From the NCBI GenBank assembly GCA_049516255.1, contig JBEKTH010000011.1:10348-74347 (forward strand): a DNA stretch of 64,000 nt, given 5' to 3'. Of the stretch, positions 4,495 through 46,697 are shown in pieces; the first letter of the stretch is position 1; every line of letters begins with the position of its first letter. The notes beneath the pieces were generated by a model. That model did no database searches and was not told where the DNA came from. It was given only the letters and a program-made list of their open reading frames with translations. The stretch is from Verrucomicrobiota bacterium (GTDB lineage: Bacteria > Verrucomicrobiota > Verrucomicrobiia > Limisphaerales > UBA11358). The translations under genes and the position numbers were made by a program.

Positions 4495-5711
4495 AGCAAT
4501 TTCTGGACGGAGATGCCGCGCAGTCCAAACAGCCGGTGAATCACGTCTTCGATCAGGTTGTTCGGGCACGACGCGCCGGCGGTGATGCCGACGGTGATTT
4601 TGCCGGACGGCAGCCAGTCACGGGTCTCGGTTTCCTTTTTGGTGTGCTGGTCGTAATGGCGGATGAGCCGGTCCGACTCCATTTTGGCCGCGTTTTTGAT
4701 GAAGTAGGTCGGCAGTTTGGCCTCACCCATTTCGGCGAGGTGCGACGTGTTGGACGAATTGTAACCGCCGATGACGAGCAGCAAATCCATCGGCTCACGC
4801 AACAGTTTTTGGAGCGCGTCCTGGCGGTCCTGGGTCGCACCGCAAATCGTGTCGAAAAACCGGAAATGTTCGGCGACGTTTTCGGGGCCGTATTTTTTCT
4901 CCATGGCGGCCTTGAAACGGCGTTGCACCTCCTCGGTTTCGCCGCGCAACATGGTGGTCTGGTTCGCCACACCGACCGCCTGCAAATGCAGTTCCGGGTC
5001 GAACCCCTGCGAATACGCGCCCTTGAACTTTTCCAGGAATTCCTGCTTGTCGCCGCCTTGAACAATGTAATTGCAGACGTAATCGGTCTCCGCGAGGTTG
5101 AAGACGACGAGATAATGTCCGCTGCCATAGGCGCGGGCCTGGGAGCTGGTGGCCTTGGTTTCCTCGTGCCACGCCTTGCCGTGGATGATGCTCGTGACGC
5201 TGTCCTTGGAATATTGCCGGACACGCTTCCAGACGCTCATCACGTCACCACAGGTGGTGTCCACGAGCACACAGCCTTTCTCTTCGAGTCGTTTGCGCGT
5301 GCCAACCTCGGTGCCAAACGCGGGAATCATCACCACGTCTCCGGGATTCAGGCGGGTCATCTCCTCCTCGGTCGGCTTGGGCGAGATGATCTGGATGCCC
5401 ATGTTGCGGATCTGGTCGTTGACCTCCGGGTTGTGGATGATTTCGCCGAGCAGATAAATGGGTTTTTCCGGCGGGAAATATTTCCGCGCGGCGTAGGCGA
5501 GGTCAATTGCCCGCTCGACGCCATAGCAGAAGCCGAACTCCTTCGCGAGCTTCACGGTGAGGCTGTCGGCGGAAAGCACGCAGCCGTTCGCGCGGACGCG
5601 TTCGACGAGTTCGCTGCGATAATGGGAGAGCACCTGGGCCTGCACGGCCTCAAGGATGTCGGGCCGGCGGAGGTTGACTTTTTTTTGCGCGGCGGGCGCT
5701 TCGGTTGACAT
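4485..5711 (-). CDS. ispH: 4-hydroxy-3-methylbut-2-enyl diphosphate reductase (long form)
   Basis: 408 aa. GFCYGVERAI and later conserved Cys/His segments are present. It has an N-terminal extension of about 90 aa compared with the E. coli-type enzyme. Confidence 0.93.
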   Translation of the reverse strand: MSTEAPAAQKKVNLRRPDILEAVQAQVLSHYRSELVERVRANGCVLSADSLTVKLAKEFGFCYGVERAIDLAYAARKYFPPEKPIYLLGEIIHNPEVNDQIRNMGIQIISPKPTEEEMTRLNPGDVVMIPAFGTEVGTRKRLEEKGCVLVDTTCGDVMSVWKRVRQYSKDSVTSIIHGKAWHEETKATSSQARAYGSGHYLVVFNLAETDYVCNYIVQGGDKQEFLEKFKGAYSQGFDPELHLQAVGVANQTTMLRGETEEVQRRFKAAMEKKYGPENVAEHFRFFDTICGATQDRQDALQKLLREPMDLLLVIGGYNSSNTSHLAEMGEAKLPTYFIKNAAKMESDRLIRHYDQHTKKETETRDWLPSGKITVGITAGASCPNNLIEDVIHRLFGLRGISVQKLLAT

Positions 5712-5767
5712 AACAAAGGAAGTGTAACACGCGAACGGGCATCGTCTAGCGCGAAAGCCACGGTGAA

Positions 5768-5838
5768 ATGGATTGATGGATTTTTGGATTATTGACGTGG
5801 TCCCCGGCCGCGCTCCTCCAATAATCCACCAATCCGGC
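5768..5838. repeat. Tandem-repeat inverted repeat (period about 8, unit TGGATTnn)
   Basis: Left arm tggattga tggatttt tggattat. Right arm ccaataatccaccaatcc, with a 10-nt perfect complement (tggattattg). It lies upstream of tRNA-Pro. Confidence 0.7.
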
Positions 5839-5913
5839 GCTTCAATACTTTCCTGCCTTAAACGAATGTCATTGCGAATCCAACTGAATGCGGGGATACT
5901 TCAGTCTGCAAGT

Positions 5914-8812: not shown

Positions 8813-8891
8813 AAACGCGCGTGAGCCAATCACAGCCGAGCACAGACGCATACTATATACCGCTCGTGAATTGCGGGCGGAAGCTGGGTGA

Positions 8892-9296
<405 letters not shown>

Positions 9297-16230: not shown

Positions 16231-16776
16231 TTACAGCCTGTCAGCGTCTTGTTGGGCATGAGGCCCCATATGCAATAGATCTATGAAGTCGCCCCCCGCT
16301 GCGCTCGGAACAAGGAAGTCACCTTTGAGAAACGACGTCACGATATCTTTGAGCCAGATGATTTTTATGCCGTGCCCTTCGATTAGATTAACCTCGTGCT
16401 GAGACTTGACTACGTTCAAGACCAGTTCCGACGACCAAGCCCCTTTCCAAAGTGACCGCATCAATTCCAGTTTCTTTGGATGATGAAATTTCTTGTTGAT
16501 CCACTCAGTGACGCCGTCAACGAGCTCGGTGTCAGAACGCTTTGCACTATTTGCAGCGCGTCCACCTTTTTGGAGTTCTTTCGGGACTCGCGATATGTAA
16601 CTAACCGGTCGCATGGAGGCTTGCACCTCAAGGTGTCGGCATTCGGTGGTGCCATTCGGTTGAGATTTTATTGCCAACAAGTCAATTTCATGAACGCCGA
16701 GTTTTATCCCGCGGATTGTGAAATAGCCTTTCCGGTTTAGCCATTCCTCAACGATCTCTTCAGCAAGAATTGACAT
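16231..16776 (-). CDS. PD-(D/E)xK nuclease-fold-like hypothetical protein (181 aa)
   Basis: The N-terminus EEIVEEWLNRKGY...HEIDLLAIK...RHLEVQAS resembles the E..D..E-x-K/Q core of YraN/restriction-endonuclease-like proteins. It lies in the lower-G+C region. Confidence 0.5.
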   Translation of the reverse strand: MSILAEEIVEEWLNRKGYFTIRGIKLGVHEIDLLAIKSQPNGTTECRHLEVQASMRPVSYISRVPKELQKGGRAANSAKRSDTELVDGVTEWINKKFHHPKKLELMRSLWKGAWSSELVLNVVKSQHEVNLIEGHGIKIIWLKDIVTSFLKGDFLVPSAAGGDFIDLLHMGPHAQQDADRL

Positions 16777-22170: not shown

Positions 22171-22332
22171 TGATTTGCGATTTGGGATATACGATTTACG
22201 CGCCCTCAAACAAATCGAAATCCCAACCCTTATGAATCACGAAGAAATGAAGGCTCGGAAACAAGAACCGCGCGCATCTCGCGCAGCGCGTAAATCGTGA
22301 ATCGTAAATCGTAAATCGTAAATTGTAAATCC
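22171..22332. repeat. Tandem-heptad inverted repeat (unit ATTTACG / CGTAAAT), largest copy
   Basis: Left arm gatttgc gatttgg gatatac gatttac gcg. The right arm is 6 heptads: cgtaaat cgtgaat cgtaaat cgtaaat cgtaaat tgtaaat. There is a 12-nt perfect complement and a spacer of about 86 nt with a GC-rich palindrome. It fills the lpxC/fabZ-lpxA gap. Confidence 0.85.
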
Positions 22333-22334
22333 TC

Positions 22335-23102
22335 ATGGTTCATCCAACTGCCATCATCCATCCCCGGGCGCGGATCGGCGCCGGTTGTGACATCGGTCCC
22401 TACTGCGTCATCGGCGAACACGTCGTGCTGGGCGACCGATGCAGGCTCCATTCCCACGTGGTCGTTGACGGTCATACCCGGATGGGCCGGGAGAACGAAA
22501 TTTTCCCCTTTGCCAGCATTGGGTTGAAGACGCAGGATTTGAAATGGAAGGGCGGGGTTACCCGCGTGGAAATCGGAAGTCACAATACCTTCCGTGAATA
22601 CGTCACGATCCACAGCGCGACCGGCGACGGCGAGGTGACGCGTGTCGGTTCGCACAATCACACTCTGGCTTATTGCCATATCGCGCACAATTGCCTGCTG
22701 GGCGATCATATCATCATGTCCAACGTGGCGACGCTGGCAGGGCACGTGACGGTGGAGGATTACGCGGTGATTGGCGGGCTGGCGGCCATCCATCAGTTTT
22801 GCCGGATTGGCAAAATGGCGATGATTGGTGGTTGCTCGAAGGTGGTGCAGGACGTGCCACCGTTCATGATGGCCGACGGCAATCCGGCGGAGACGCGCAC
22901 CATCAATAAAATTGGCATGGAACGGAACGGAGTTTCCGAAAAGGCCCAGGGCGCATTGCGCCAGGCCTACAAGATATTGTTCCGGGAGGGCCTGACCGTT
23001 CGCAACGCCGTGGTAAAGGTGGAGAAAAAGCTGCCGGGAATGGAGGAAATCGGCCATTTGGTTCAATTTGTACGGTCCAGCGAGCGGGGAATCAGCAAAT
23101 AA
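22335..23102 (+). CDS. lpxA: Acyl-ACP--UDP-N-acetylglucosamine O-acyltransferase
   Basis: 255 aa. MVHPTAIIHPRARIG start and hexapeptide repeats throughout. Confidence 0.95.
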   Translation: MVHPTAIIHPRARIGAGCDIGPYCVIGEHVVLGDRCRLHSHVVVDGHTRMGRENEIFPFASIGLKTQDLKWKGGVTRVEIGSHNTFREYVTIHSATGDGEVTRVGSHNHTLAYCHIAHNCLLGDHIIMSNVATLAGHVTVEDYAVIGGLAAIHQFCRIGKMAMIGGCSKVVQDVPPFMMADGNPAETRTINKIGMERNGVSEKAQGALRQAYKILFREGLTVRNAVVKVEKKLPGMEEIGHLVQFVRSSERGISK

Positions 23103-23121
23103 AATTAAGTTAAAAAACCTG

Positions 23122-23149
23122 TTGACAGGGCGGGTGGAATTGCTAGTTT
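23122..23149 (+). promoter_or_regulatory. Candidate sigma70 promoter for the tRNA-Thr/tuf unit
   Basis: TTGACA, 16 nt, TAGTTT, preceded by an A/T-rich UP-like stretch aaaattaagttaaaaaa. Confidence 0.35.
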
Positions 23150-23273
23150 GCAGGGCGTCAGGGCCGTAAAAAGTTAAAGAGCCGGTTGCCCCTCGGATTT
23201 TCGAAAGAAAAGAAGTGAGGGGAAGCGGTTTTTTGTCTTTTGACGTATCTGGTCGGACTAATGATTTCAGTGT

Positions 23274-23349
23274 GCCCATGTAGCTCAGTTGGTAGAGCAC
23301 ATCCTTGGTAAGGATGAGGTCATCAGTTCGATCCTGATCATGGGCTCCA
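23274..23349 (+). tRNA. tRNA-Thr (anticodon GGT), CCA encoded
   Basis: Acceptor gcccatg/catgggc, anticodon stem-loop catcc-ttggtaa-ggatg, T-arm agttcgatcct. Confidence 0.9.
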
Positions 23350-23397
23350 GACAAATTTGTTGATAAAAAATAACGAAACCAACGCAGGAGAAATAAA

Positions 23398-25050: not shown

Positions 25051-25305
25051 GTGAACAGTTGGACTAAAATTTTGATCTGGGCGGCGGCGGTGGGTGCGGT
25101 CTTTGCCTATTTATGGTGGCAGGGACAAATCCGGCGTTTGGCCGACTATTGCGGGGAGACATTGGAAGAATTAAAAAAATGCTCGTGGCCAACGTGGGAT
25201 GAATTAAAAGGCTCAACGATGGTAATTGCCATTTGCATTGGCCTGCTCGGCGGTTTTGTTTACGCCGTGGACCAGATCTTTTTCGCAATTTTCTTTAAAC
25301 TCTGA
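25051..25305 (+). CDS. secE: Preprotein translocase subunit SecE
   Basis: 84 aa from an in-frame GTG. It has the ELKKCSWPTWDEL motif and one C-terminal TM helix. The ORF-track extension from 24976 is encoded by the repeat. Confidence 0.8.
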   Translation: MNSWTKILIWAAAVGAVFAYLWWQGQIRRLADYCGETLEELKKCSWPTWDELKGSTMVIAICIGLLGGFVYAVDQIFFAIFFKL

Positions 25306-25310
25306 GCAAC

Positions 25311-25859
25311 ATGCGCAGCCAGTGGTTTGTCATACATACGCTTTCGGGCCAGGAGCAGAAGGTCAAGGAAAGCATTGAAAAGCGCGTCAAGACCGACGAG
25401 ATGCAGGACTTTGTCAAAGAGGTCCTGGTGCCGATGGAAAAGGTCGTTGAAGTGCGCAATCAGAAGAAGACCGTGTCGAGCCGCAAGCTCTGGCCGGGCT
25501 ACGTGTTTGTGGACATGGTGTTGCTGGATGAAAACAACCGCATCATCGAGGAACCGTGGTATTTCATCAAGGAAACGCAGGGAGTGATTGGTTTTGTGGG
25601 TGGCGAGCCGCCGACGCCAACGCCGGCCGAGGAAGTCGAGTCCATCAAGGCCCAGATTTCGGCGTCGGAGGAGACGGAGAAGCCCAAGGTCAATTTTGAA
25701 GTCGGCGAGACGATTAAAATCAACAACGGGCCGTTCCTGAATTTCAGCGGGATCATCGAGGAAATTGATCCGGAACGCGGCAAGTTGAAGGTGACCGTGA
25801 ACATTTTTGGACGCAACACGCCGGTGGAACTCGAATACTGGCAGGTGGAAAAGGCATAG
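25311..25859 (+). CDS. nusG: Transcription termination/antitermination factor NusG
   Basis: 182 aa. [17 protein letters not shown] domain and a KOW region ([11 protein letters not shown]). Confidence 0.95.
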
Positions 25860-25866
25860 ACGCTTT

Positions 25867-26292
25867 ATGGCAAAGAAAGTCACAGGACAGATTAAATTGC
25901 AGATTCCGGCAGGGCAGGCGAATCCCGCGCCCCCGGTGGGGCCGGCGCTGGGCCAGCACGGCGTCAACATCATGGGCTTCTGCAAGGAATTTAATGCGGC
26001 GACCAAGGCCGACGCGGGTTTGGTGATTCCCGTTGTCATCACGGTTTATCAGGACAAGTCGTTCACGTTCATCACCAAATCGCCGCCGGCGTCGATCCTG
26101 TTGAAAAAGGCGGCGGGCATCACGGCCGGTTCCAAAACGCCGAACAAGGACAAGGTCGGCAAGGTGACGCGCAAACAGGTTTTGGACATCGTCAAGATGA
26201 AGTCAAAGGATTTGAACGCGAATTCGCCCGAGGCGGCGTTCCGGGTCGTTGCCGGCACGGCGCGCAGCATGGGTATTGAAGTCGTCGAATAA
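25867..26292 (+). CDS. rplK: 50S ribosomal protein L11
   Basis: [36 protein letters not shown]. Confidence 0.97.
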
Positions 26293-40797: not shown

Positions 40798-40821
40798 AAC
40801 GGCCAACTATTTCTACCCAAA

Positions 40822-40865
40822 CCTCGGCATGGGCAAAAAAACCTGTGCCGAGGTTAATCTTTTTA
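40822..40865 (+). terminator. Possible terminator after pnp
   Basis: cctcggca-N16-tgccgagg, then ttaatcttttt. Confidence 0.5.
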
Positions 40866-40875
40866 CGGCTTTTGA

Positions 40876-40992
40876 ATTAACCGCGAAATGCGCGAAATAC
40901 GCTAACAGGATTTAAAACTTTTTCGTGTATTTAGCGGTTTAAACGGCTTCCCGGCAAATTAACGTTTCGTATTTTTTGTGTTTGGCGGTTCA
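40876..40992. repeat. CGCGAAATA-type palindromic repeat, upstream flank of the GxxExxY gene
   Basis: ttaaccgcgaaatgcgcgaaatacgctaacaggat, followed by two complementary arms (ttttcgtgtatttagcggttt and cgtttcgtattttttgtgtttggcggtt). Confidence 0.75.
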
Positions 40993-41007
40993 GTTATTCT
41001 TTTCCCC

Positions 41008-41409
41008 ATGAAAACTGAATTATTATTCAAAGAGGAAAGTTATAAGATCGTTGGAGCGTGTTTTGAAGTTTATCGTGAGAAAGCCTGTGGTTTCCTTGAA
41101 CCGGTGTATCAGGAATGCATGGAGATTGAATTACGCCTGCAAGGAATTCCGTTTGTGCCTCAGAAGCCGCTGGCACTCGAATACAAGGGTTGTCCGCTGC
41201 GTTCAAAATATGTGCCGGATTTTGTCTGTTACGACAAGATCATGTTGGAACTGAAAGCTGTGACCGAGCTGACTGATGAACATCGGGCGCAAGTACAGAA
41301 TTATCTGACAGCGACGGGACTGAAACTCGGATTGCTGGTCAATTTGGGACATTATCCCAAGGCTGAGGTTGAACGTATCGTGGCTGAAAAGGGCCGATAC
41401 GCACATTAA
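41008..41409 (+). CDS. GxxExxY family protein (PD-(D/E)xK-like)
   Basis: 133 aa from the ATG at 41008. IVGACFEVYREKACGFLEPVYQECMEIEL...PDFVCYDKIMLELKAV...QNYL. Confidence 0.85.
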   Translation: MKTELLFKEESYKIVGACFEVYREKACGFLEPVYQECMEIELRLQGIPFVPQKPLALEYKGCPLRSKYVPDFVCYDKIMLELKAVTELTDEHRAQVQNYLTATGLKLGLLVNLGHYPKAEVERIVAEKGRYAH

Positions 41410-41468
41410 CCGCGAAATACGCTAACAGGATAATTTTTTTTCGCGTATTTCGTGTATTTTGCGGTTTA
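41406..41468. repeat. CGCGAAATA-type palindromic repeat, downstream flank of the GxxExxY gene
   Basis: ttaaccgcgaaatacgctaacaggat, then the complementary arm tttttcgcgtatttcgtgtattttgcggtt. Its first 26 nt match the upstream copy apart from one 9-nt unit. Confidence 0.8.
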
Positions 41469-41469
41469 A

Positions 41470-42045
41470 TTAAATTCTTTTCGCCAGTTCCGCCTGGCTC
41501 TTCGCAAACACTTCCTTGTGCAGCGAATTGCCGTGCGCGTCCATGGTCACCACGGCGGGGAAGTTTTCGACTTCAAATTCCCAGATGGCTTCCGGCGCGC
41601 CAAATTCTTTCATCATATAAACGTTGCGCACCTTCTTGATGCAGTCGGCCAGCACCTGTGCCGCGCCGCCAACCGCGTGCAGATAGACGCAGCCAAAGTC
41701 CTTGCACGCTGCGAGCGTCTTGTCGCCCATGCCACCCTTGCCGATGACACCACGAATGCCGAAGTCCTTGATGATTTGCGCCTGATACGGTTCTTCGCGA
41801 ATGGACGTCGTTGGGCCGGCGGCAGTGGCTTTCCAGGTACCGTCGTCCTGTTTCATCACGACCGGGCCGCAATGATAAAGGATGCCGTCGCGCAGGTTCA
41901 CGCCCGGCGGCAGCTTGCCGCCCTCGTGCAAGTATTTGTGGACCGCGTCGCGCCCGGTGAACACGACGCCGGAAATCAGCACCTCATCGCCGACTTTCAG
42001 TGCCCGGATTTTTTCTTCGGAAAATGGGAATGAAAGTTTAATCAT
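41470..42045 (-). CDS. Class I (Fe-S) fumarate hydratase / tartrate dehydratase beta subunit
   Basis: 191 aa. LKVGDEVLISGVVFTGRDAVHK...IGKGGM. Confidence 0.88.
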   Translation of the reverse strand: MIKLSFPFSEEKIRALKVGDEVLISGVVFTGRDAVHKYLHEGGKLPPGVNLRDGILYHCGPVVMKQDDGTWKATAAGPTTSIREEPYQAQIIKDFGIRGVIGKGGMGDKTLAACKDFGCVYLHAVGGAAQVLADCIKKVRNVYMMKEFGAPEAIWEFEVENFPAVVTMDAHGNSLHKEVFAKSQAELAKRI

Positions 42046-42058
42046 AACAACATCTAAA

Positions 42059-43075
42059 CTAGAACCGTGGTTCGTCGGCCACCGCTGGCTTAAACCGTTG
42101 GATGACTCTTTGAATCCGTTCAGGTACGTTGAACGAGCTCTCTACTTGCTCATTTTTTTTGCACGCGGCTTCCATCCGCGTGAGTTGCTCCGAGGTGAAG
42201 AACTTGAGGCCTTCAATCTTTCCAGCAATGGCCTTGGAAGCTGCGAATGAAGGTGCTTTTTCCAAACCTACAACCAGCGCTTCTCGCATCGTGCCTGCGG
42301 TCGTTTTGTTCTTCAGCAACAAATCCACCACGTCGGCGGCAAGCGCGTCGTGTGCGTCGAGCTTGCCCGGCGAACCTTGCAGTTTGCCGATGAAGCCGTA
42401 AGGGTCTAGGCCAAGCCTGACAGGAATTACTAGCACGCCTTTGCCGATTGCGAAGCCCACTTCCTGGTCAGTCCACTTGCTTTCATGGAAATCAGGCGTG
42501 AGCAATGCGACAAAGGCGTGCATGGAGCGTAGTGCGAGTTCGATTTCACGCTGCCACTCAAGATTCGGCTCGATGTCTTCGTGCGCAACGAACGATGAAA
42601 CACCAAACTTTCGAAACTCCCACTTCAGCTTGGACACCGCAACCTTGTGGGTGGAGACGTGGCTGAGAAATAGTCGCAGCATGCCCGGCAGCCACAAATG
42701 CTCGACATCAACAGGAGCTATCTTTGGGTCAACGGCTTTTGGAGGTTGTTCCAAGATAAGACTGATTGCAACTTCGCGCAGCAACGTATTGCCAGTGTTG
42801 CGCAAAACAGAGGGGAGCTTCCCAGCAATGGCCTTCTCCATTTGCGACACGTCCGGCTCAATGGGTGCGAACACTTTCAATGGCAAATCCAAGAACAGGG
42901 TGAAAAGATACTGCCCGCTATCCCAGTTGTCGTAACCCGTCTCCTCAATTCTTGGTTTGGCGTTTTCTAGAACCTCACAAGCTGAATGATTTCCCTGATG
43001 GCGAAACAACTCGGTCAGCGTCGCCGCCACCGCTTCGGCGCTTTTAGGAAATGCTATTGGAGCTTCATCGTTCAT
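42059..43075 (-). CDS. TIR-like domain protein with an unknown N-terminal domain
   Basis: 339 aa from the ATG at 43075. The core LFLSHVSTHKVAVSKL...FVAHEDIEPNLEWQREI...ALLTPDFHESKWTDQEVGFAIG...VIPV matches the bacterial TIR-like pattern. G+C is visibly lower than in the flanks. Confidence 0.6.
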   Translation of the reverse strand: MNDEAPIAFPKSAEAVAATLTELFRHQGNHSACEVLENAKPRIEETGYDNWDSGQYLFTLFLDLPLKVFAPIEPDVSQMEKAIAGKLPSVLRNTGNTLLREVAISLILEQPPKAVDPKIAPVDVEHLWLPGMLRLFLSHVSTHKVAVSKLKWEFRKFGVSSFVAHEDIEPNLEWQREIELALRSMHAFVALLTPDFHESKWTDQEVGFAIGKGVLVIPVRLGLDPYGFIGKLQGSPGKLDAHDALAADVVDLLLKNKTTAGTMREALVVGLEKAPSFAASKAIAGKIEGLKFFTSEQLTRMEAACKKNEQVESSFNVPERIQRVIQRFKPAVADEPRF

Positions 43076-43110
43076 CGGTTTAACTTCTGCTTGACGAGAT
43101 TCTCGATTAT

Positions 43111-43989
43111 TCAATACAACCACTTCCCAATTTTCCCCTCCGCATCCAGCGTCACGCCCTGGCGGCGGTAGGCCCAGCACATGTAGCTGATGCTGACGAA
43201 ATAGGAAGCAGGCAGACGGTTCGCCGCGCATATCTTCACGCCCAATAGCGTGGTCTTGCCGCCGAAACCCATCGGGCCGATGCCGAGTTCGTTCGCTGTC
43301 TTCAAAATGTCCTGCTCCAGCTTGTCCAGTTCGGGATTCGGATTGCGGTCGGGAATCAACCGCAGGAACTGCGTCTTGCTCAGTTCGTAACCGGTCGCCC
43401 GGTCACCGCCGATGCACACGCCGAGGATGCCCGGGCCGCAGCCCTTGCCCTGCGCCTGCAACACCGCGTCGAGAATCGCCTTGCGGCACCCGTCGAGGTC
43501 GCGATTGGCCTGAAGCTTCTCATTCGGCAACGAGTATTGCGCGCCAACGTTTTCGCAGCCGCCGCCCTTGAGCACCAGCCGCACGCTGACTTCCGGTGAA
43601 CGATGCTGATGGAAATGAAATGCCGGCGCGCCGGGGCCGACGTTGGTACCGTCGTTCACTCCGGTGAGCGAATCCACCGAGTTCTGGCGGAGAAATCCTT
43701 TTTTGGTCGCCAGTTTCACGGCTTCCTTCGCCGTTTCCTCAAACGCGATCGGGTCGAAACCGACCGGACAATCCACGTAAAAGAGGATGCTGCCGGTGTC
43801 CTGGCAGATGGGCTGCGACTTGCGTTTGGCAAGCTGGATGTTCTGGTCGATGATTTTCAGTGCGCTTTCGGCAATCGTGCCTTTTTTTTCCTGTTCCAGG
43901 GATGCGAGGATGGATTGGTTGACGTCGTCGGGAATTTCCGCCGAGGTGCGCCGGATCAATTCGAGCAAGGAATTTTGCAATTCACTCAT
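43111..43989 (-). CDS. Class I (Fe-S) fumarate hydratase / tartrate dehydratase alpha subunit
   Basis: 292 aa from the ATG at 43989. Has the CQDTG motif, and the ...GGGCENV and GPGILGVCIGG regions. Confidence 0.88.
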   Translation of the reverse strand: MSELQNSLLELIRRTSAEIPDDVNQSILASLEQEKKGTIAESALKIIDQNIQLAKRKSQPICQDTGSILFYVDCPVGFDPIAFEETAKEAVKLATKKGFLRQNSVDSLTGVNDGTNVGPGAPAFHFHQHRSPEVSVRLVLKGGGCENVGAQYSLPNEKLQANRDLDGCRKAILDAVLQAQGKGCGPGILGVCIGGDRATGYELSKTQFLRLIPDRNPNPELDKLEQDILKTANELGIGPMGFGGKTTLLGVKICAANRLPASYFVSISYMCWAYRRQGVTLDAEGKIGKWLY

Positions 43990-44141
43990 AAAGCTGCCGA
44001 CAGCGTAAGGCTTTGGAATGCCAGCGTCAATTGGTGGGGCGAGCGTATTCGCGAGCCGGCTAACGGTCAAAGCAGGGCAGCGACGGCTCGTCAGTAGCCT
44101 CGCCCCACCAAATCGGCGCCGGTCATATACCGACGCTACAA

Positions 44142-44573
44142 CTACGCGGCGTCAATCAAGTCAATCCGATGTTGATGCCGGCCGCCTTGGAATGGCGTTT
44201 CCAGCCACACCCGGACAATTTCGAGCGCCATTTCAAGACTGACCATTCGTTCGCCGATGGAAATGACATTGGCGTTGTTGTGCAGGCGACCGAGACGGGC
44301 AGACTCCACGTTCCAGCATAGGGCGCAACGGACGCCCTTGACGCGGTTGGCGGTGATGGCTTCGCCGTTGCCGGAACCACCCAGCACGATGCCGCGTTCG
44401 AATTCGCCCCGCGCGACGCCTTCCGCCACGGGCCGGATGAACAGGGGATAATCTACCAGTTCCTCCGAATGCGTTCCGAAATCCGTGACGTCATGTCCGA
44501 GGTTCTGCAGCAGTTCCTTGATTTTTTCCTTGTACCTGAATCCGGCGTGATCTGACCCAATGGCAATTTTCAT
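44142..44573 (-). CDS. rpiB: Ribose-5-phosphate isomerase B
   Basis: 143 aa. MKIAIGSDHAGFRYKE...GIVLGGSGNGEAITANR. Confidence 0.93.
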   Translation of the reverse strand: MKIAIGSDHAGFRYKEKIKELLQNLGHDVTDFGTHSEELVDYPLFIRPVAEGVARGEFERGIVLGGSGNGEAITANRVKGVRCALCWNVESARLGRLHNNANVISIGERMVSLEMALEIVRVWLETPFQGGRHQHRIDLIDAA

Positions 44574-44642
44574 GGCTCACTCTCCGCACCAGCATGACAC
44601 GCGGGTCTTGACTTTTCCAGCCCGGAGCGCCTTTTCTGCCGG

Positions 44643-46697
44643 GTGAAGTCCGTCCTGCACGTGGCCACGCCGCCGGCGAAACCGTTGATGGTTTATGACG
44701 GCGACTGCAATTTCTGCACGATCTGGATCCGCCGGTGGCAACAGATGACCGGCCAGAGCGTGGACTTTCTGCCGGCGCAGGATCCAGGCATCCCGGCGCA
44801 GTTTCCTGAAATTCCCCGCGAACAGTTTGATACCGCCGTCCAGCTTGTCGAATCCGACGGTACGGTTTATTCCGGCGCCGAAGCGGTGTTTCGCACGCTG
44901 GCGCACAGTTCCCATCGTCAATGGCCGTTGCGCCTTTACCAAGACTCGCCGTTCCTTGCGAACATCACGGAATGGGCTTACCGCCAGGTCGCGACCCATC
45001 GGGCTTTTTTCTCCCTCCTGACGCGCTGGTTTTGGGGACGGCACGTCGAACCGCCGGCGCAAGTTCTCACGCGCTGGATTTTTCTGCGTGCGCTGGCCGT
45101 AATTTACCTGATGGCGTTCGTTTCGTTGTGGACGCAAATCGACGGCCTGATCGGTCACGACGGTATTTTGCCGACCGACCAGTATGTGGCGGCGGCGCGG
45201 CAGCAATGCGACTTGGAGGGGATCGGCCCGGACCGGTTTCGTTTAATACCCACGTTCTGCTGGTTCGATTCATCCGATGGCTTTCTTGGTTTTCAATGCG
45301 CGGCCGGCGTGGGGCTGGCGGTCCTTTTGATGGTTGGCGTTGCACCCGTGCCATGTCTCACCTTGCTGTGGCTGTTGTATCTTTCGCTCGCGACCGTTGG
45401 GCGCGATTTTCTCGGTTTCCAATGGGACAACCTGCTGCTCGAAGCCGGCTTTCTCGCGATCTTTCTGGCGCCGTGGCAATGGCTGCCGCGCTGTTTCCTG
45501 GGAGCGCTGGCATCTTGCCGGCGTGGAGTTGTTGGATCTGGCCGGCAAGATGCCGGCGCTCCGGCTCAAGAAGCGCCACCTTCCCGCATCGTGTTGTGGC
45601 TGCTGCGATTATTGCTGTTCAAACTGATATTTTCATCCGGCTGTGTGAAGCTGTTCAGCGGCGACCCGAATTGGCGCAACCTTACCGCGCTGACTTTTCA
45701 CTATCAAACGCAGCCGCTGCCGACGTGGATTGGCTGGTACGCGCAGCAACTGCCATTGTGGTTTCAAAAGGCGTCCTGTGCCGGGATGTTCGCGATTGAA
45801 CTGGGTGCGCCGTTCCTGATCTTTATGCCACGGCGACTGCGGTTTTGCGGCGGGGCAGCCATCGCGTTTCTCCAAATCCTGATCCTGTTGACCGGCAATT
45901 ACACCTTTTTCAACTGGCTCACGCTGGCATTATGCCTGTTGCTGCTGGATGATTTCGTATTGAAGAAGGTTGTGCCGTTAAAACTCCGGCGTTTGTTTGC
46001 CTTCAACCCTCAACCTTCAACCTTCAACCGGTCCCGGCGCTGGCCGCGTTTCATCACCGTTCCGCTCGCGATGGTGGTGACGATCCTTTACCTGTTTCAG
46101 ATCAGCCTGACGTTCGGCGCCCGGCCGGTCTGGCTGTATCCGGTGGCCGTAGCGGATGCCTGGCTCGAACCTTTTCGGACATTCAACGGGTACGGTTTGT
46201 TCGCCGTGATGACCACCGAACGGCGCGAGATCGTCGTGGAAGGTAGCGATGACGGCATGAACTGGCGGCCGTATGAATTCAAAAACAAACCCGGTGACGT
46301 GGACCGGCGTCCGGCCTTTGTCGCGCCGCACCAGCCGCGCCTGGACTGGCAGATGTGGTTCGCGGCGCTGGGCGATTACCGGGAGAACCCGTGGTTTGTA
46401 AATTTCTGCCTGCGCCTGCTGCAAGGTTCACCGGAGGTGGCGGCGTTGCTGGCCAAAAATCCGTTTCCGGATCACCCGCCGCGCTACCTTCGCGCCGGGC
46501 TTTACGACTATCAATTTACCAGTTTTGCCGAACGGCACGCCTCCGGCGCGTGGTGGAAACGGGAGCGGGTGGGCGAATACCTGCCGCCGGTGTCACTTTC
46601 CGATTTTGAAAAAAATCAGAACTTCCTCTCGACAGACAACCACACATTGTTAATTTCGCAACGGCCATGGCCAAAACCAAACGTATCGGGATACTGA
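44643..46697 (+). CDS. Fusion protein: DCC-type thiol-disulfide oxidoreductase (DUF393) + lipase maturation factor (LMF) family membrane domain
   Basis: 684 aa with a GTG start. The N-terminus has VYDGDCNFC. The LMF-like blocks are [28 protein letters not shown] and [22 protein letters not shown]...[14 protein letters not shown]. It carries two in-frame repeat elements. Confidence 0.8.
45501..45562. repeat. 22-bp-stem GC-rich palindrome inside the LMF coding sequence
   Basis: ggagcgctggcatcttgccggc, an 18-nt loop, then gccggcaagatgccggcgctcc (21 of 22 complementary). It encodes ...[21 protein letters not shown]... Confidence 0.85.
45958..46031. repeat. Tandem-heptad inverted repeat (unit CTTCAAC) inside the LMF coding sequence
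   Basis: Left arm tattgaagaaggttgtg. Right arm cttcaac cctcaac cttcaac cttcaac. It encodes ...[24 protein letters not shown]... Confidence 0.8.

Follow-up and report, generated by a model that had tools for sequence, protein, structure and literature searches.

The stretch of DNA analyzed here, 64,000 nucleotides (nt) from a Verrucomicrobiota bacterium (the window in what follows), carries a gene for a TIR-domain protein between fumA and fumB, the genes of a two-subunit Fe-S hydro-lyase (class I fumarate hydratase/tartrate dehydratase family in Pfam and NCBIfam). All three genes are on the same strand. We favor, with confidence somewhat above even, the view that the TIR protein is an autonomous abortive-infection protein, with a sensor and a TIR NADase on a single polypeptide, present here as an orphan cassette in the fumarase operon. 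The fumA|fumB junction is a lineage-specific hotspot at which defense and toxin genes are exchanged, and the TIR gene lies between the two subunit genes because of this, without a shared function with fumarase. An earlier reading of the sequence alone (the original prediction) had noted a co-oriented gene splitting two normally adjacent subunit genes and had proposed a single-gene defense module in a metabolic operon. The arrangement is as described: in related genomes the subunit genes are usually 0–30 nt apart (12 nt in L020, L021, L029, and L030; L numbers denote loci and P numbers proteins), and the window gene starts 35 nt after fumA and stops 13 nt ahead of fumB. The proposal holds in that the gene is accessory and moves horizontally, but the placement is not specific to TIR, with about 20 different defense or toxin–antitoxin (TA) cargoes at the junction in relatives.

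The central part of the protein is a TIR domain. Pfam TIR_2 (PF13676) covers residues 136–225 with an E-value of 6.2e-15 (56.2 bits vs. a cut-off of 28) and, with E-values up to 1, only TIR families are found in the protein. The AlphaFold2 (AF2) model, obtained from 61 family members, has a mean predicted local distance difference test score (pLDDT) of 87.4 and consists of three parts, N-terminal alpha/beta, TIR (residues 133–220), and C-terminal helical, followed by a low-confidence tail. Foldseek matches in the PDB are confined to the TIR part (probability 1.00, TMt 0.6–0.71) and include SARM1 TIR (E 2.8e-4), MAL, AbTir (TMt 0.71), SPARTA TIR-APAZ, a B. cereus TIR protein, and SpbK; by both AF2 and Foldseek the fold is the flavodoxin-like TIR fold. 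In the alignment of the 61 members, H139, A164-H165-x-D167, W201, D203, and E205 are invariant. A profile search of the PDB aligns SKWTDQEV with SSWCLDEL of a plant nucleotide-binding leucine-rich repeat TIR NADase (7crb) and with KDWTNYEL of AbTIR. E205 aligns with the Glu of the WxxxE motif, which we take to be the catalytic Glu of TIR NADases, and the domain is predicted to be catalytically competent through Glu205. The TIR-like core recognized in the original prediction by its motifs is thus confirmed by profile and structure, with the conserved Glu in place.

The N-terminal domain had been given about 170 amino acids (aa) and called unknown. It is shorter, about 110–128 aa, because strand beta-A of the TIR domain begins at residue 133. 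In the AF2 model its core has the order a-a-b-b-a-b (helices 13–27 and 30–38, a hairpin at 40–64, a helix at 66–84, and a strand at 97–106) with a pLDDT of about 90–95; modeled alone, the domain reaches 81.5. A viral fold library gave TIR or deoxyribosyltransferase-like matches to the TIR part only and none for this domain. The domain can be placed as a swappable module common to AbiJ-type abortive-infection proteins, and in this sense is more than an unknown. A profile built on it retrieves 710 representative proteins at E ≤1e-3 (315 at E ≤1e-10) among 1.84 billion, mostly with the TIR architecture. Other arrangements occur. It is joined to AbiJ_NTD3 and Abi_C (the HEPN effector of AbiJ) in P0241, to AbiJ_NTD3 and an AAA_21/AAA_15 ATPase in P0219, and to a C terminus resembling a restriction endonuclease in P0236, and in P0118, P0153, and P0179 it stands between AbiJ_NTD3 and TIR. 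This non-catalytic N-terminal domain thus recurs with alternative effectors and is, as the domain architectures indicate, a swappable module of sensor type that has no Pfam model. The N-terminal domains (NTDs) of AbiJ proteins have been proposed as sensors that restrain a suicidal effector; variable domains (AbiJ-NTD1–5) are combined with HEPN or other effectors, and the proteins are often found in restriction–modification (RM) operons (PMC3710099). The swapping of the N-terminal domain matches this pattern and is the strongest argument for a self-contained sensor–effector of the abortive-infection type. The window protein itself has no HEPN (Abi_C) and no Pfam AbiJ_NTD match at E-values up to 1.

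The C-terminal helical tail of the original prediction is a domain that AF2 models with high confidence (Table 1). It is conserved family-wide, has no match in Pfam or, with the full-length model, in Foldseek against the PDB, and is possibly used for oligomerization or regulation. After a variable linker of low confidence (the last block of the window model has a pLDDT of 55, consistent with disorder), most proteins of the family end in a tip that resembles the C terminus of SSB, the protein that binds single-stranded DNA. Among 115 full-length homologues, 61 end in PF and 81 in F, with the consensus D[DE][VI]PF (DDDIPF in P0097 and DDEDDLPF in P0118; P0021 is a further example). The tip of E. 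coli SSB is DDDIPF. In the window clade the tip is shifted (ADEPRF in the window, ADEPLF in L015, and ADDPVF in P0001); the window form retains the terminal Phe and acidic residues in a changed register. Possible roles of the tail are a tether to SSB-binding proteins, a bait for the replication proteins of phages, and autoinhibition.

A search for the whole family gives 2691 matches. More than 100 are full length (about 338 aa) and 46–91% identical and, by source annotation, members belong to Verrucomicrobiota, Methylomirabilota, Acidobacteriota (Ca. Sulfotelmatobacter), and Zixibacteria. The neighborhoods of 89 TIR-family loci were surveyed, with neighbors clustered, and the sole recurrent neighbors are type I RM genes. 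HsdS (Methylase_S) is directly upstream and co-oriented, 2–9 nt away or overlapping, in 29 loci, with HsdM (N6_Mtase) further upstream and HsdR (HSDR_N/SWI2_SNF2) downstream, in the order hsdM-hsdS-TIR-...-hsdR. After deduplication, 41 loci extend 1.2 kb or more upstream, and 15 of them have HsdS there; 34 extend 3 kb or more downstream, and 15 of them have HsdR there. Of the 24 loci informative on both flanks, 15 have Hsd genes. The genes between TIR and hsdR are variable (an 852-aa AAA_15/21 protein, PDDEXK_4, Schlafen/AlbA_2, Nmad2/Nmad3). The family's usual home is therefore the type I RM operon, between hsdS and hsdR. We did not observe a conserved non-Hsd partner or a ThsA-type effector across the 89 loci, or a ThsA-type gene in the window, in agreement with the original prediction that no partner effector gene is nearby. 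The 64-kb window was also searched for type I RM genes and for ssb, and neither was found.

For the fumarase locus, one genome per species was taken, giving 80 loci (L017–L096), all from Verrucomicrobiota metagenome-assembled genomes (MAGs) with a fumA 82–98% identical to that of the window and located, in most, at about 5001–5879. In 23 of the 80, fumB follows fumA at 0–62 nt. In 29, there are bounded inserts of 185–2584 nt with unrelated cargo. In 20 others, no fumB is found within at least 2 kb of fumA, and each has different genes downstream; the remaining eight lie on contigs too short for a judgment. The junction varies rapidly: species whose fumA is 95% identical or more show both empty sites (L020, L021, L023, and L029) and six different occupied states. 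All Pfam-supported cargo is co-oriented, starts 1–40 nt past the fumA stop, and ends 5–20 nt ahead of the fumB ATG. The types seen are PemK/MazF toxins (preceded by an antitoxin and the promoter-like CTTGCCAG-N17-TAGATT), PIN, a DUF4258/DUF2283 pair, Fic with DUF6883, Zeta-toxin-like kinases, a MNT-HepT pair, Nmad3, an Rv2179c-like exonuclease (PADLOC "Effector Exonuclease", E 1e-36), a GmrSD enzyme of the same type as the validated HEC-06 (E 5e-194), a Sll1717-family P-loop ATPase, AAA_21 with DUF4276, 23S-rRNA-IVP four-helix-bundle proteins, and several unknowns. The TIR gene occupies the junction in only one of the 80 species representatives (L080, the same as L015), so that it is accessory and not lineage-wide, which is in favor of the original prediction. 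It is also at the junction in metagenome contigs (L177, with a TIR protein 91% identical, and L179–L182, 82%), directly after fumA and with a homologous leader. Arrays occur, such as fumA | TIR | PIN-like + 80 aa | fumB′ | MNT-HepT | fumB in L179 and fumA | AAA_21 + DUF4276 | fumB′ | PIN-like | fumB′ | TA... in L024.

Several other features of the junction were seen in passing. A TA cassette with its own sigma-70-like promoter (the CTTGCCAG-N17-TAGATT given above) is located just past the fumB′ relics of L019, L022, L024, L027, L028, and L040. This cassette recurs beside fumB in many species, its antitoxin starting with MSAAEI..ELPKLT and its toxin being MazF/PemK or PIN. A PIN-like gene (about 155 aa, METxYIETSVVSYLVA...) travels with one of about 80 aa (L015:5708–6419, L033:7270–8012, L179:1393–2113, and L177:1215–1337); Pfam matches neither of them. 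In several lineages, the pair is found with the TIR or Nmad3 cassettes of the fumarase site. Some MAG records (L019, L045, L047, L055, L061, L066, L067, L069, L077, L078, and L094), with fumA 83–98% identical, are titled Bifidobacteriaceae, Klebsiella, or Akkermansia muciniphila and are probably mislabeled bins.

In the window, the fit of the TIR gene between its neighbors is tight. On the minus strand, the open reading frame (ORF) with its stop end at 42059 could start as far upstream as 43231, with an overlap with fumA. We set the start at 43075 (338 aa) because the family alignment begins there; the start Met is equivalent to the ATG at 43075 in all 60 aligned homologues, so that the longer reading lacks support. 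The gene has a G+C content (GC) of 0.527 (0.593 at third codon positions, GC3), and the 41 long ORFs of the window have means of 0.586 (standard deviation [sd] 0.026) and 0.710 (sd 0.074), respectively. The visibly lower G+C of the original prediction is therefore real, but the deviation is only moderate. The leader is too short for a full promoter; homologous leaders precede the TIR gene in the fumA-linked L177, L015, and L179. A promoter and terminator scan of 40800–44800 gave no signal above shuffles. Co-transcription with the fumarase operon, as suggested in the original prediction, is most likely, since the site seems to tolerate only compact, co-oriented, terminator-free genes. Upstream of fumB, empty sites read GGAGAnnnnnnn-ATG and the window TTTAGATGTTGTT-ATG. 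A GGAG motif resembling a Shine–Dalgarno sequence precedes fumB at empty sites (L020, L021, L029, L030, and L079) and is missing in the window and at other occupied sites, so that translation of fumB may depend on, and be coupled to, the inserted cassette. The window fumB is 95% identical to that of the empty-site relative L020. An identical TIR protein is present in 18 metagenome contigs, mostly from peatland, all with the order rpiB-fumA-TIR-fumB-(GxxExxY)-pnp. We rejected the idea that the N terminus of the TIR protein (AFPKSAEAVAATL) derives from that of FumB (SFPFSEEKIRALK), because FPxSxExVVATL is conserved family-wide in all contexts.

Traces of insertion are found at both types of site. 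Within RM operons, TIR forms a separate unit of about 1.1 kb, bracketed in L103, L117, and L129 by direct repeats of the hsdS 3′ end (46–71 nt, 84–96% identical) that encode ...LRDxLLPKLLSGEL. By local DNA alignment, 10 of 61 non-redundant loci are above the 99th percentile of controls; this comparison supersedes a strict HsdS C-terminal peptide motif, which was too narrow (8 of 71 loci). At the fumarase site, ten loci together have 11 pseudo-copies of the fumB 5′ end, which are situated between cassettes and mostly span nt 1 to about 95–105 (some to near 60 or 127), and three loci have a copy of the fumA 3′ end (last 100–185 nt) downstream of the cassette. The hsdS-end repeats have the same form as these relics. 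We infer from the sequences that the relics would be the footprint of single-crossover (Campbell-type) integration of a circle that carries the cassette with a small part of the flanking gene; the repeats would then be able to recombine and release it again. Junction cassettes are set apart by fumB 5′ or fumA 3′ relics and not by attC-like elements (attC was not explicitly searched). Among the 77 ORFs of fumB-less regions downstream of fumA, no integrase or transposase is found in the 25 most frequent Pfam families; an IS200-like match near TIR in L006 is weak (E 2.8e-3). The window insertion is in a "clean" state, without flanking repeats, and a search for target-site duplications or terminal repeats gave only short repeats at chance level. 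The 35-nt leader as a relic of an hsdS 3′ end is unsupported, with local alignments no better than shuffles (p ∼0.08–0.5). A wider proposal, speculative and on balance doubtful, would be that cassettes move by means of portable gene-end copies (the initial ∼100 nt of fumB, the terminal ∼170 nt of fumA, and the terminal 46–71 nt of hsdS), Campbell-type and with no dedicated integrase, making the operon interior an integron-like array of promoterless defense and toxin genes, and that the D[DE][VI]PF tail of the TIR family is a bait or tether for phage or host DNA replication proteins.

The TIR gene is maintained by selection, with ratios of nonsynonymous to synonymous divergence (dN/dS) of 0.07–0.13 in all TIR pairs, fumA-linked pairs included. 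Between the window and L015, synonymous divergence is 0.80 for TIR and 0.83 for fumA, which fits joint descent. In the comparison of the window with L179, the values are 1.24 for TIR and 0.37 for the adjacent 3′ part of fumA, a contrast that indicates, at the sequence level, allele exchange at the site. The closest relatives outside the fumarase site are L001 and L016, with an hsdS-like 3′ end in front and Nmad3 behind (Nmad2 too in L001), and L178, which has just 17 nt of upstream sequence and an hsdS-type repeat downstream of the TIR gene. With its closest relatives in other neighborhoods, the cassette must have moved between RM-type and fumarase sites at least once.

Table 1. Positions of the TIR gene, its domains and neighbors in the window, and of gene-end repeats in related loci
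Feature	Position	Strand	Remarks
TIR-family gene	42059..43075	(-)	338 aa + stop; accessory defense-type cassette; Pfam TIR_2
N-terminal alpha/beta domain, residues 1–128, core 13–106	42692..43075	(-)	AF2; putative sensor or adaptor
TIR domain, residues 133–225	42401..42679	(-)	Pfam TIR_2; Foldseek; PDB profile search
Glu205 codon, motif W-T-D-Q-E	42461..42463	(-)	predicted catalytic; invariant; aligned with TIR NADase Glu
C-terminal helical domain, residues 242–328, five to six helices	42092..42352	(-)	AF2 pLDDT 93–97
C-terminal tip A-D-E-P-R-F	42062..42079	(-)	degenerate form of family D[DE][VI]PF-COOH
fumA, alpha subunit	43111..43989	(-)	Pfam Fumerase E 1.1e-68; NCBIfam TIGR00722 E 2.4e-63; upstream border of insertion site
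fumB, beta subunit, intact	41470..42045	(-)	Pfam Fumerase_C E 1e-56; NCBIfam TIGR00723; downstream border of insertion site
Leader, 35 nt, fumA stop to TIR ATG	43076..43110	(-)	read from sequence
Spacer, 13 nt, TIR stop to fumB ATG	42046..42058	(-)	read from sequence
fumB 5′ relics	L019:5906–6010; L022:6859–6961; L024:7756–7850, 8815–8911; L027:2620–2718; L042:7305–7402; L179:2132–2230		
fumA 3′ copies	L041:6781–6949; L048:7040–7225; L043:5455–5554		
hsdS-end direct repeats around TIR	L103:421–466/1529–1574; L117:2054–2124/3193–3263; L129:3051–3117/4182–4248		repeat search

Elsewhere in the window, a GxxExxY/PDDEXK_3 gene (40978–41409, plus strand; TIGR04256, E 2.5e-38) with a very low GC of 0.456 lies between fumB and pnp. 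The gene is absent from 8 of 9 mappable relatives, where this gap is just 91–168 nt long, and represents another insertion beside the fumarase operon, independent of the first. Three ORFs on the minus strand, 16231–16776, 22230–23354, and 25260–26042, have GC values of 0.487, 0.540, and 0.543 (more than 1 sd under the mean) with no Pfam match, and may be additional foreign genes. At the ends of the TIR gene, there is an imperfect inverted repeat of 16 nt (42090–42105/43068–43083, 81% complementary). One arm, GTTAAACCGATGAACGA, is at the start and the complementary arm about 30 nt ahead of the stop; the repeat may be due to chance, being one of 15 short pairs in the region.

In the reading we favor, a phage-derived cue would release or assemble the TIR protein, the TIR domains would oligomerize and hydrolyze NAD+, and NAD+ hydrolysis would stop the growth of the infected cell; the window copy would be an orphan that landed in the fumA–fumB hotspot away from an RM operon. 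SpbK is a precedent for abortive infection by a single-gene TIR NADase. Several points weigh against it. The function of the family is a prediction for every member. TIR domains can alternatively make signaling nucleotides, be scaffolds, or cleave nucleic acids. The fold search of the PDB gave no convincing match for the putative sensor (best E 4e-3, TM ≤0.44, with Era KH-like and OsmC-like folds), and the tip of the window clade is degenerate. Models of named systems, PADLOC SAVED_TIR and ThsB and NCBIfam ThcB4 and retron-TIR, match the TIR core only and far under cut-offs (SAVED_TIR over residues 134–205), which is why we place the protein outside these systems. In addition, Pfam finds no SAVED, STING, or cNMP-binding domain in the protein, the cyclic-nucleotide sensors that a TIR effector of CBASS or Pycsar (TIR-SAVED, TIR-STING, PycTIR) would carry. 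Lastly, the strong link to type I RM could mean that the protein needs an RM complex, absent from the window.

This last point leads to the main rival, to which we give a real but minor chance: a guardian of the PrrC type, with the Hsd complex holding the TIR protein inactive until a phage anti-restriction protein disables the complex, the window copy then relying on RM genes elsewhere in the genome. The position between hsdS and hsdR in about 60% of informative loci, with hsdS 2–9 nt upstream, would suit such a role. PrrC itself is such an embedded effector, of the type Ic EcoprrI locus, and the Stp peptide of T4 activates it (PMC12707154); genes embedded in type I RM operons, TgvAB among them, are enriched for defense functions ("guilt by embedding"; 10.1101/2024.01.29.577857; PMC11411939). 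However, at least four fumA-linked lineages (the window, L177, L015, and L179) and several other loci have no adjacent hsd gene, with dN/dS still about 0.09, and there is none within the 64 kb of the window. To judge by the repeats of its 3′ end, hsdS would seem to be a target for insertion and not a functional partner, and other unrelated cargo occupies the same position in RM operons. Smaller still is the chance that the TIR domain is a ThsB-like generator of a cyclic ADP-ribose-type or related messenger for an effector encoded elsewhere. The fold resembles that of ThsB and of the B. cereus TIR protein, and the core is matched by ThsB (PADLOC, E 4.9e-5 to 2.4e-3 over about 80 residues) and by ThcB4 of Thoeris type III. 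These matches are partial and far under curated cut-offs (31.6 bits vs. 220 for ThcB4), no ThsA, Macro, SLOG, SIR2, or other effector is conserved beside the 80-odd family members, and the protein's own sensor-like N-terminal domain and C-terminal domain suggest that it is self-contained; the likeness to Thoeris raised by the original prediction is thus weak.

The remaining two explanations concern the fumarase site. The cassette could be a selfish addiction element, retained mainly because fumB expression or the cell suffers when it is removed or silenced, and not for phage defense. The loss of the native GGAG ahead of fumB at occupied sites and the many TA modules among the co-resident cargoes fit with this; but strong purifying selection acts over the whole protein, catalytic motif included, across phyla and contexts, there is no antitoxin-like partner, and clean empty sites are common, so loss is tolerated. 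We leave it a slim chance. Very unlikely is a metabolic or regulatory partner of fumarase, that is, an NAD-linked enzyme or a regulator recruited to an operon of the tricarboxylic acid cycle. Only the operon position and the likely co-transcription speak for it, against a junction that in relatives holds MazF, PIN, Zeta, HepT, Fic, GmrSD/HEC-06, Nmad3, exonuclease, and others, or is empty (23 of 80), a family whose main context is RM operons in many phyla, and a foreign, if moderately deviating, composition of the TIR gene.

As far as the literature searched goes, the TIR family, the SSB-like tip, and the hotspot in the fumarase operon appear not to have been described before: we found no report of a TIR protein with such a tip or of such a hotspot. 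If the self-contained sensor–effector reading is true, a large cross-phylum TIR family (710 representative clusters with the N-terminal domain), uncharacterized until now and at home in type I RM operons, is defined, with a clear architecture open to test (a sensor module like that of AbiJ, the TIR domain and its catalytic Glu, a helical domain, and an SSB-like tip). Defense and toxin cassettes would colonize a 12-nt gap that separates the genes of a heteromeric metabolic enzyme, borrowing its transcription and possibly its translation signals. This would widen the search space for defense genes and would call for caution in inferring function from operon membership. The gene-end relic repeats at fumarase and RM sites would give a handle on the movement of small cassettes without integrase.

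Among known systems, the TIR NADases of the SpbK (Bacillus subtilis) and AbTir type share with the window protein the TIR fold, the Glu of WxxxE, the apparent union of sensing and effector in one polypeptide, and the location on mobile or accessory DNA. There is no detectable sequence relationship beyond the TIR core, and the window family adds the N-terminal alpha/beta domain, the C-terminal helical domain, and the acidic xPF tail; activity is here a prediction. With AbiJ (Anantharaman et al. 2013, PMC3710099), the common principle is a sensor NTD with a swappable toxin, the N-terminal domain occurring with AbiJ_NTD3, Abi_C, AAA_21, nuclease-like, or TIR partners; the window protein, however, lacks AbiJ_NTD3 and HEPN, and its N-terminal domain matches no Pfam AbiJ_NTD model. 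PrrC (EcoprrI) resembles the family in the typical embedding between hsdS and hsdR. The effector of PrrC is an ABC-ATPase-linked anticodon nuclease, whereas that of the window family is TIR; many copies are orphaned from RM, and the hsdS-end repeats point to an insertion-site preference. ThsB of Thoeris is likewise a small TIR protein of defense islands, with weak matches of its hidden Markov models to the window protein; but these extend over about 80 residues (E 5e-5 or worse), and the window protein has extra N- and C-terminal domains and no ThsA or other partner.

In the tail, most members of the family follow the SSB scheme of disordered linker, acidic stretch, and (V/I)PF-COOH, exactly DDDIPF in P0097; the family has no OB fold and is not SSB, and the window tip ADEPRF is degenerate. 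Finally, the junction is comparable to the hotspots flanked by core genes and to "guilt by embedding" (Payne et al. 2024; Hochhauser et al. 2023) in its fixed position and varying defense or TA cargo, the validated HEC-06 GmrSD-like protein included. It differs in that the cargo is ORF-tight, strictly co-oriented, and separated by relics of the flanking genes, with no integrase among the 25 most frequent Pfam families, and in that the fumarase site is internal to an operon of two genes that encode the subunits of a single enzyme.

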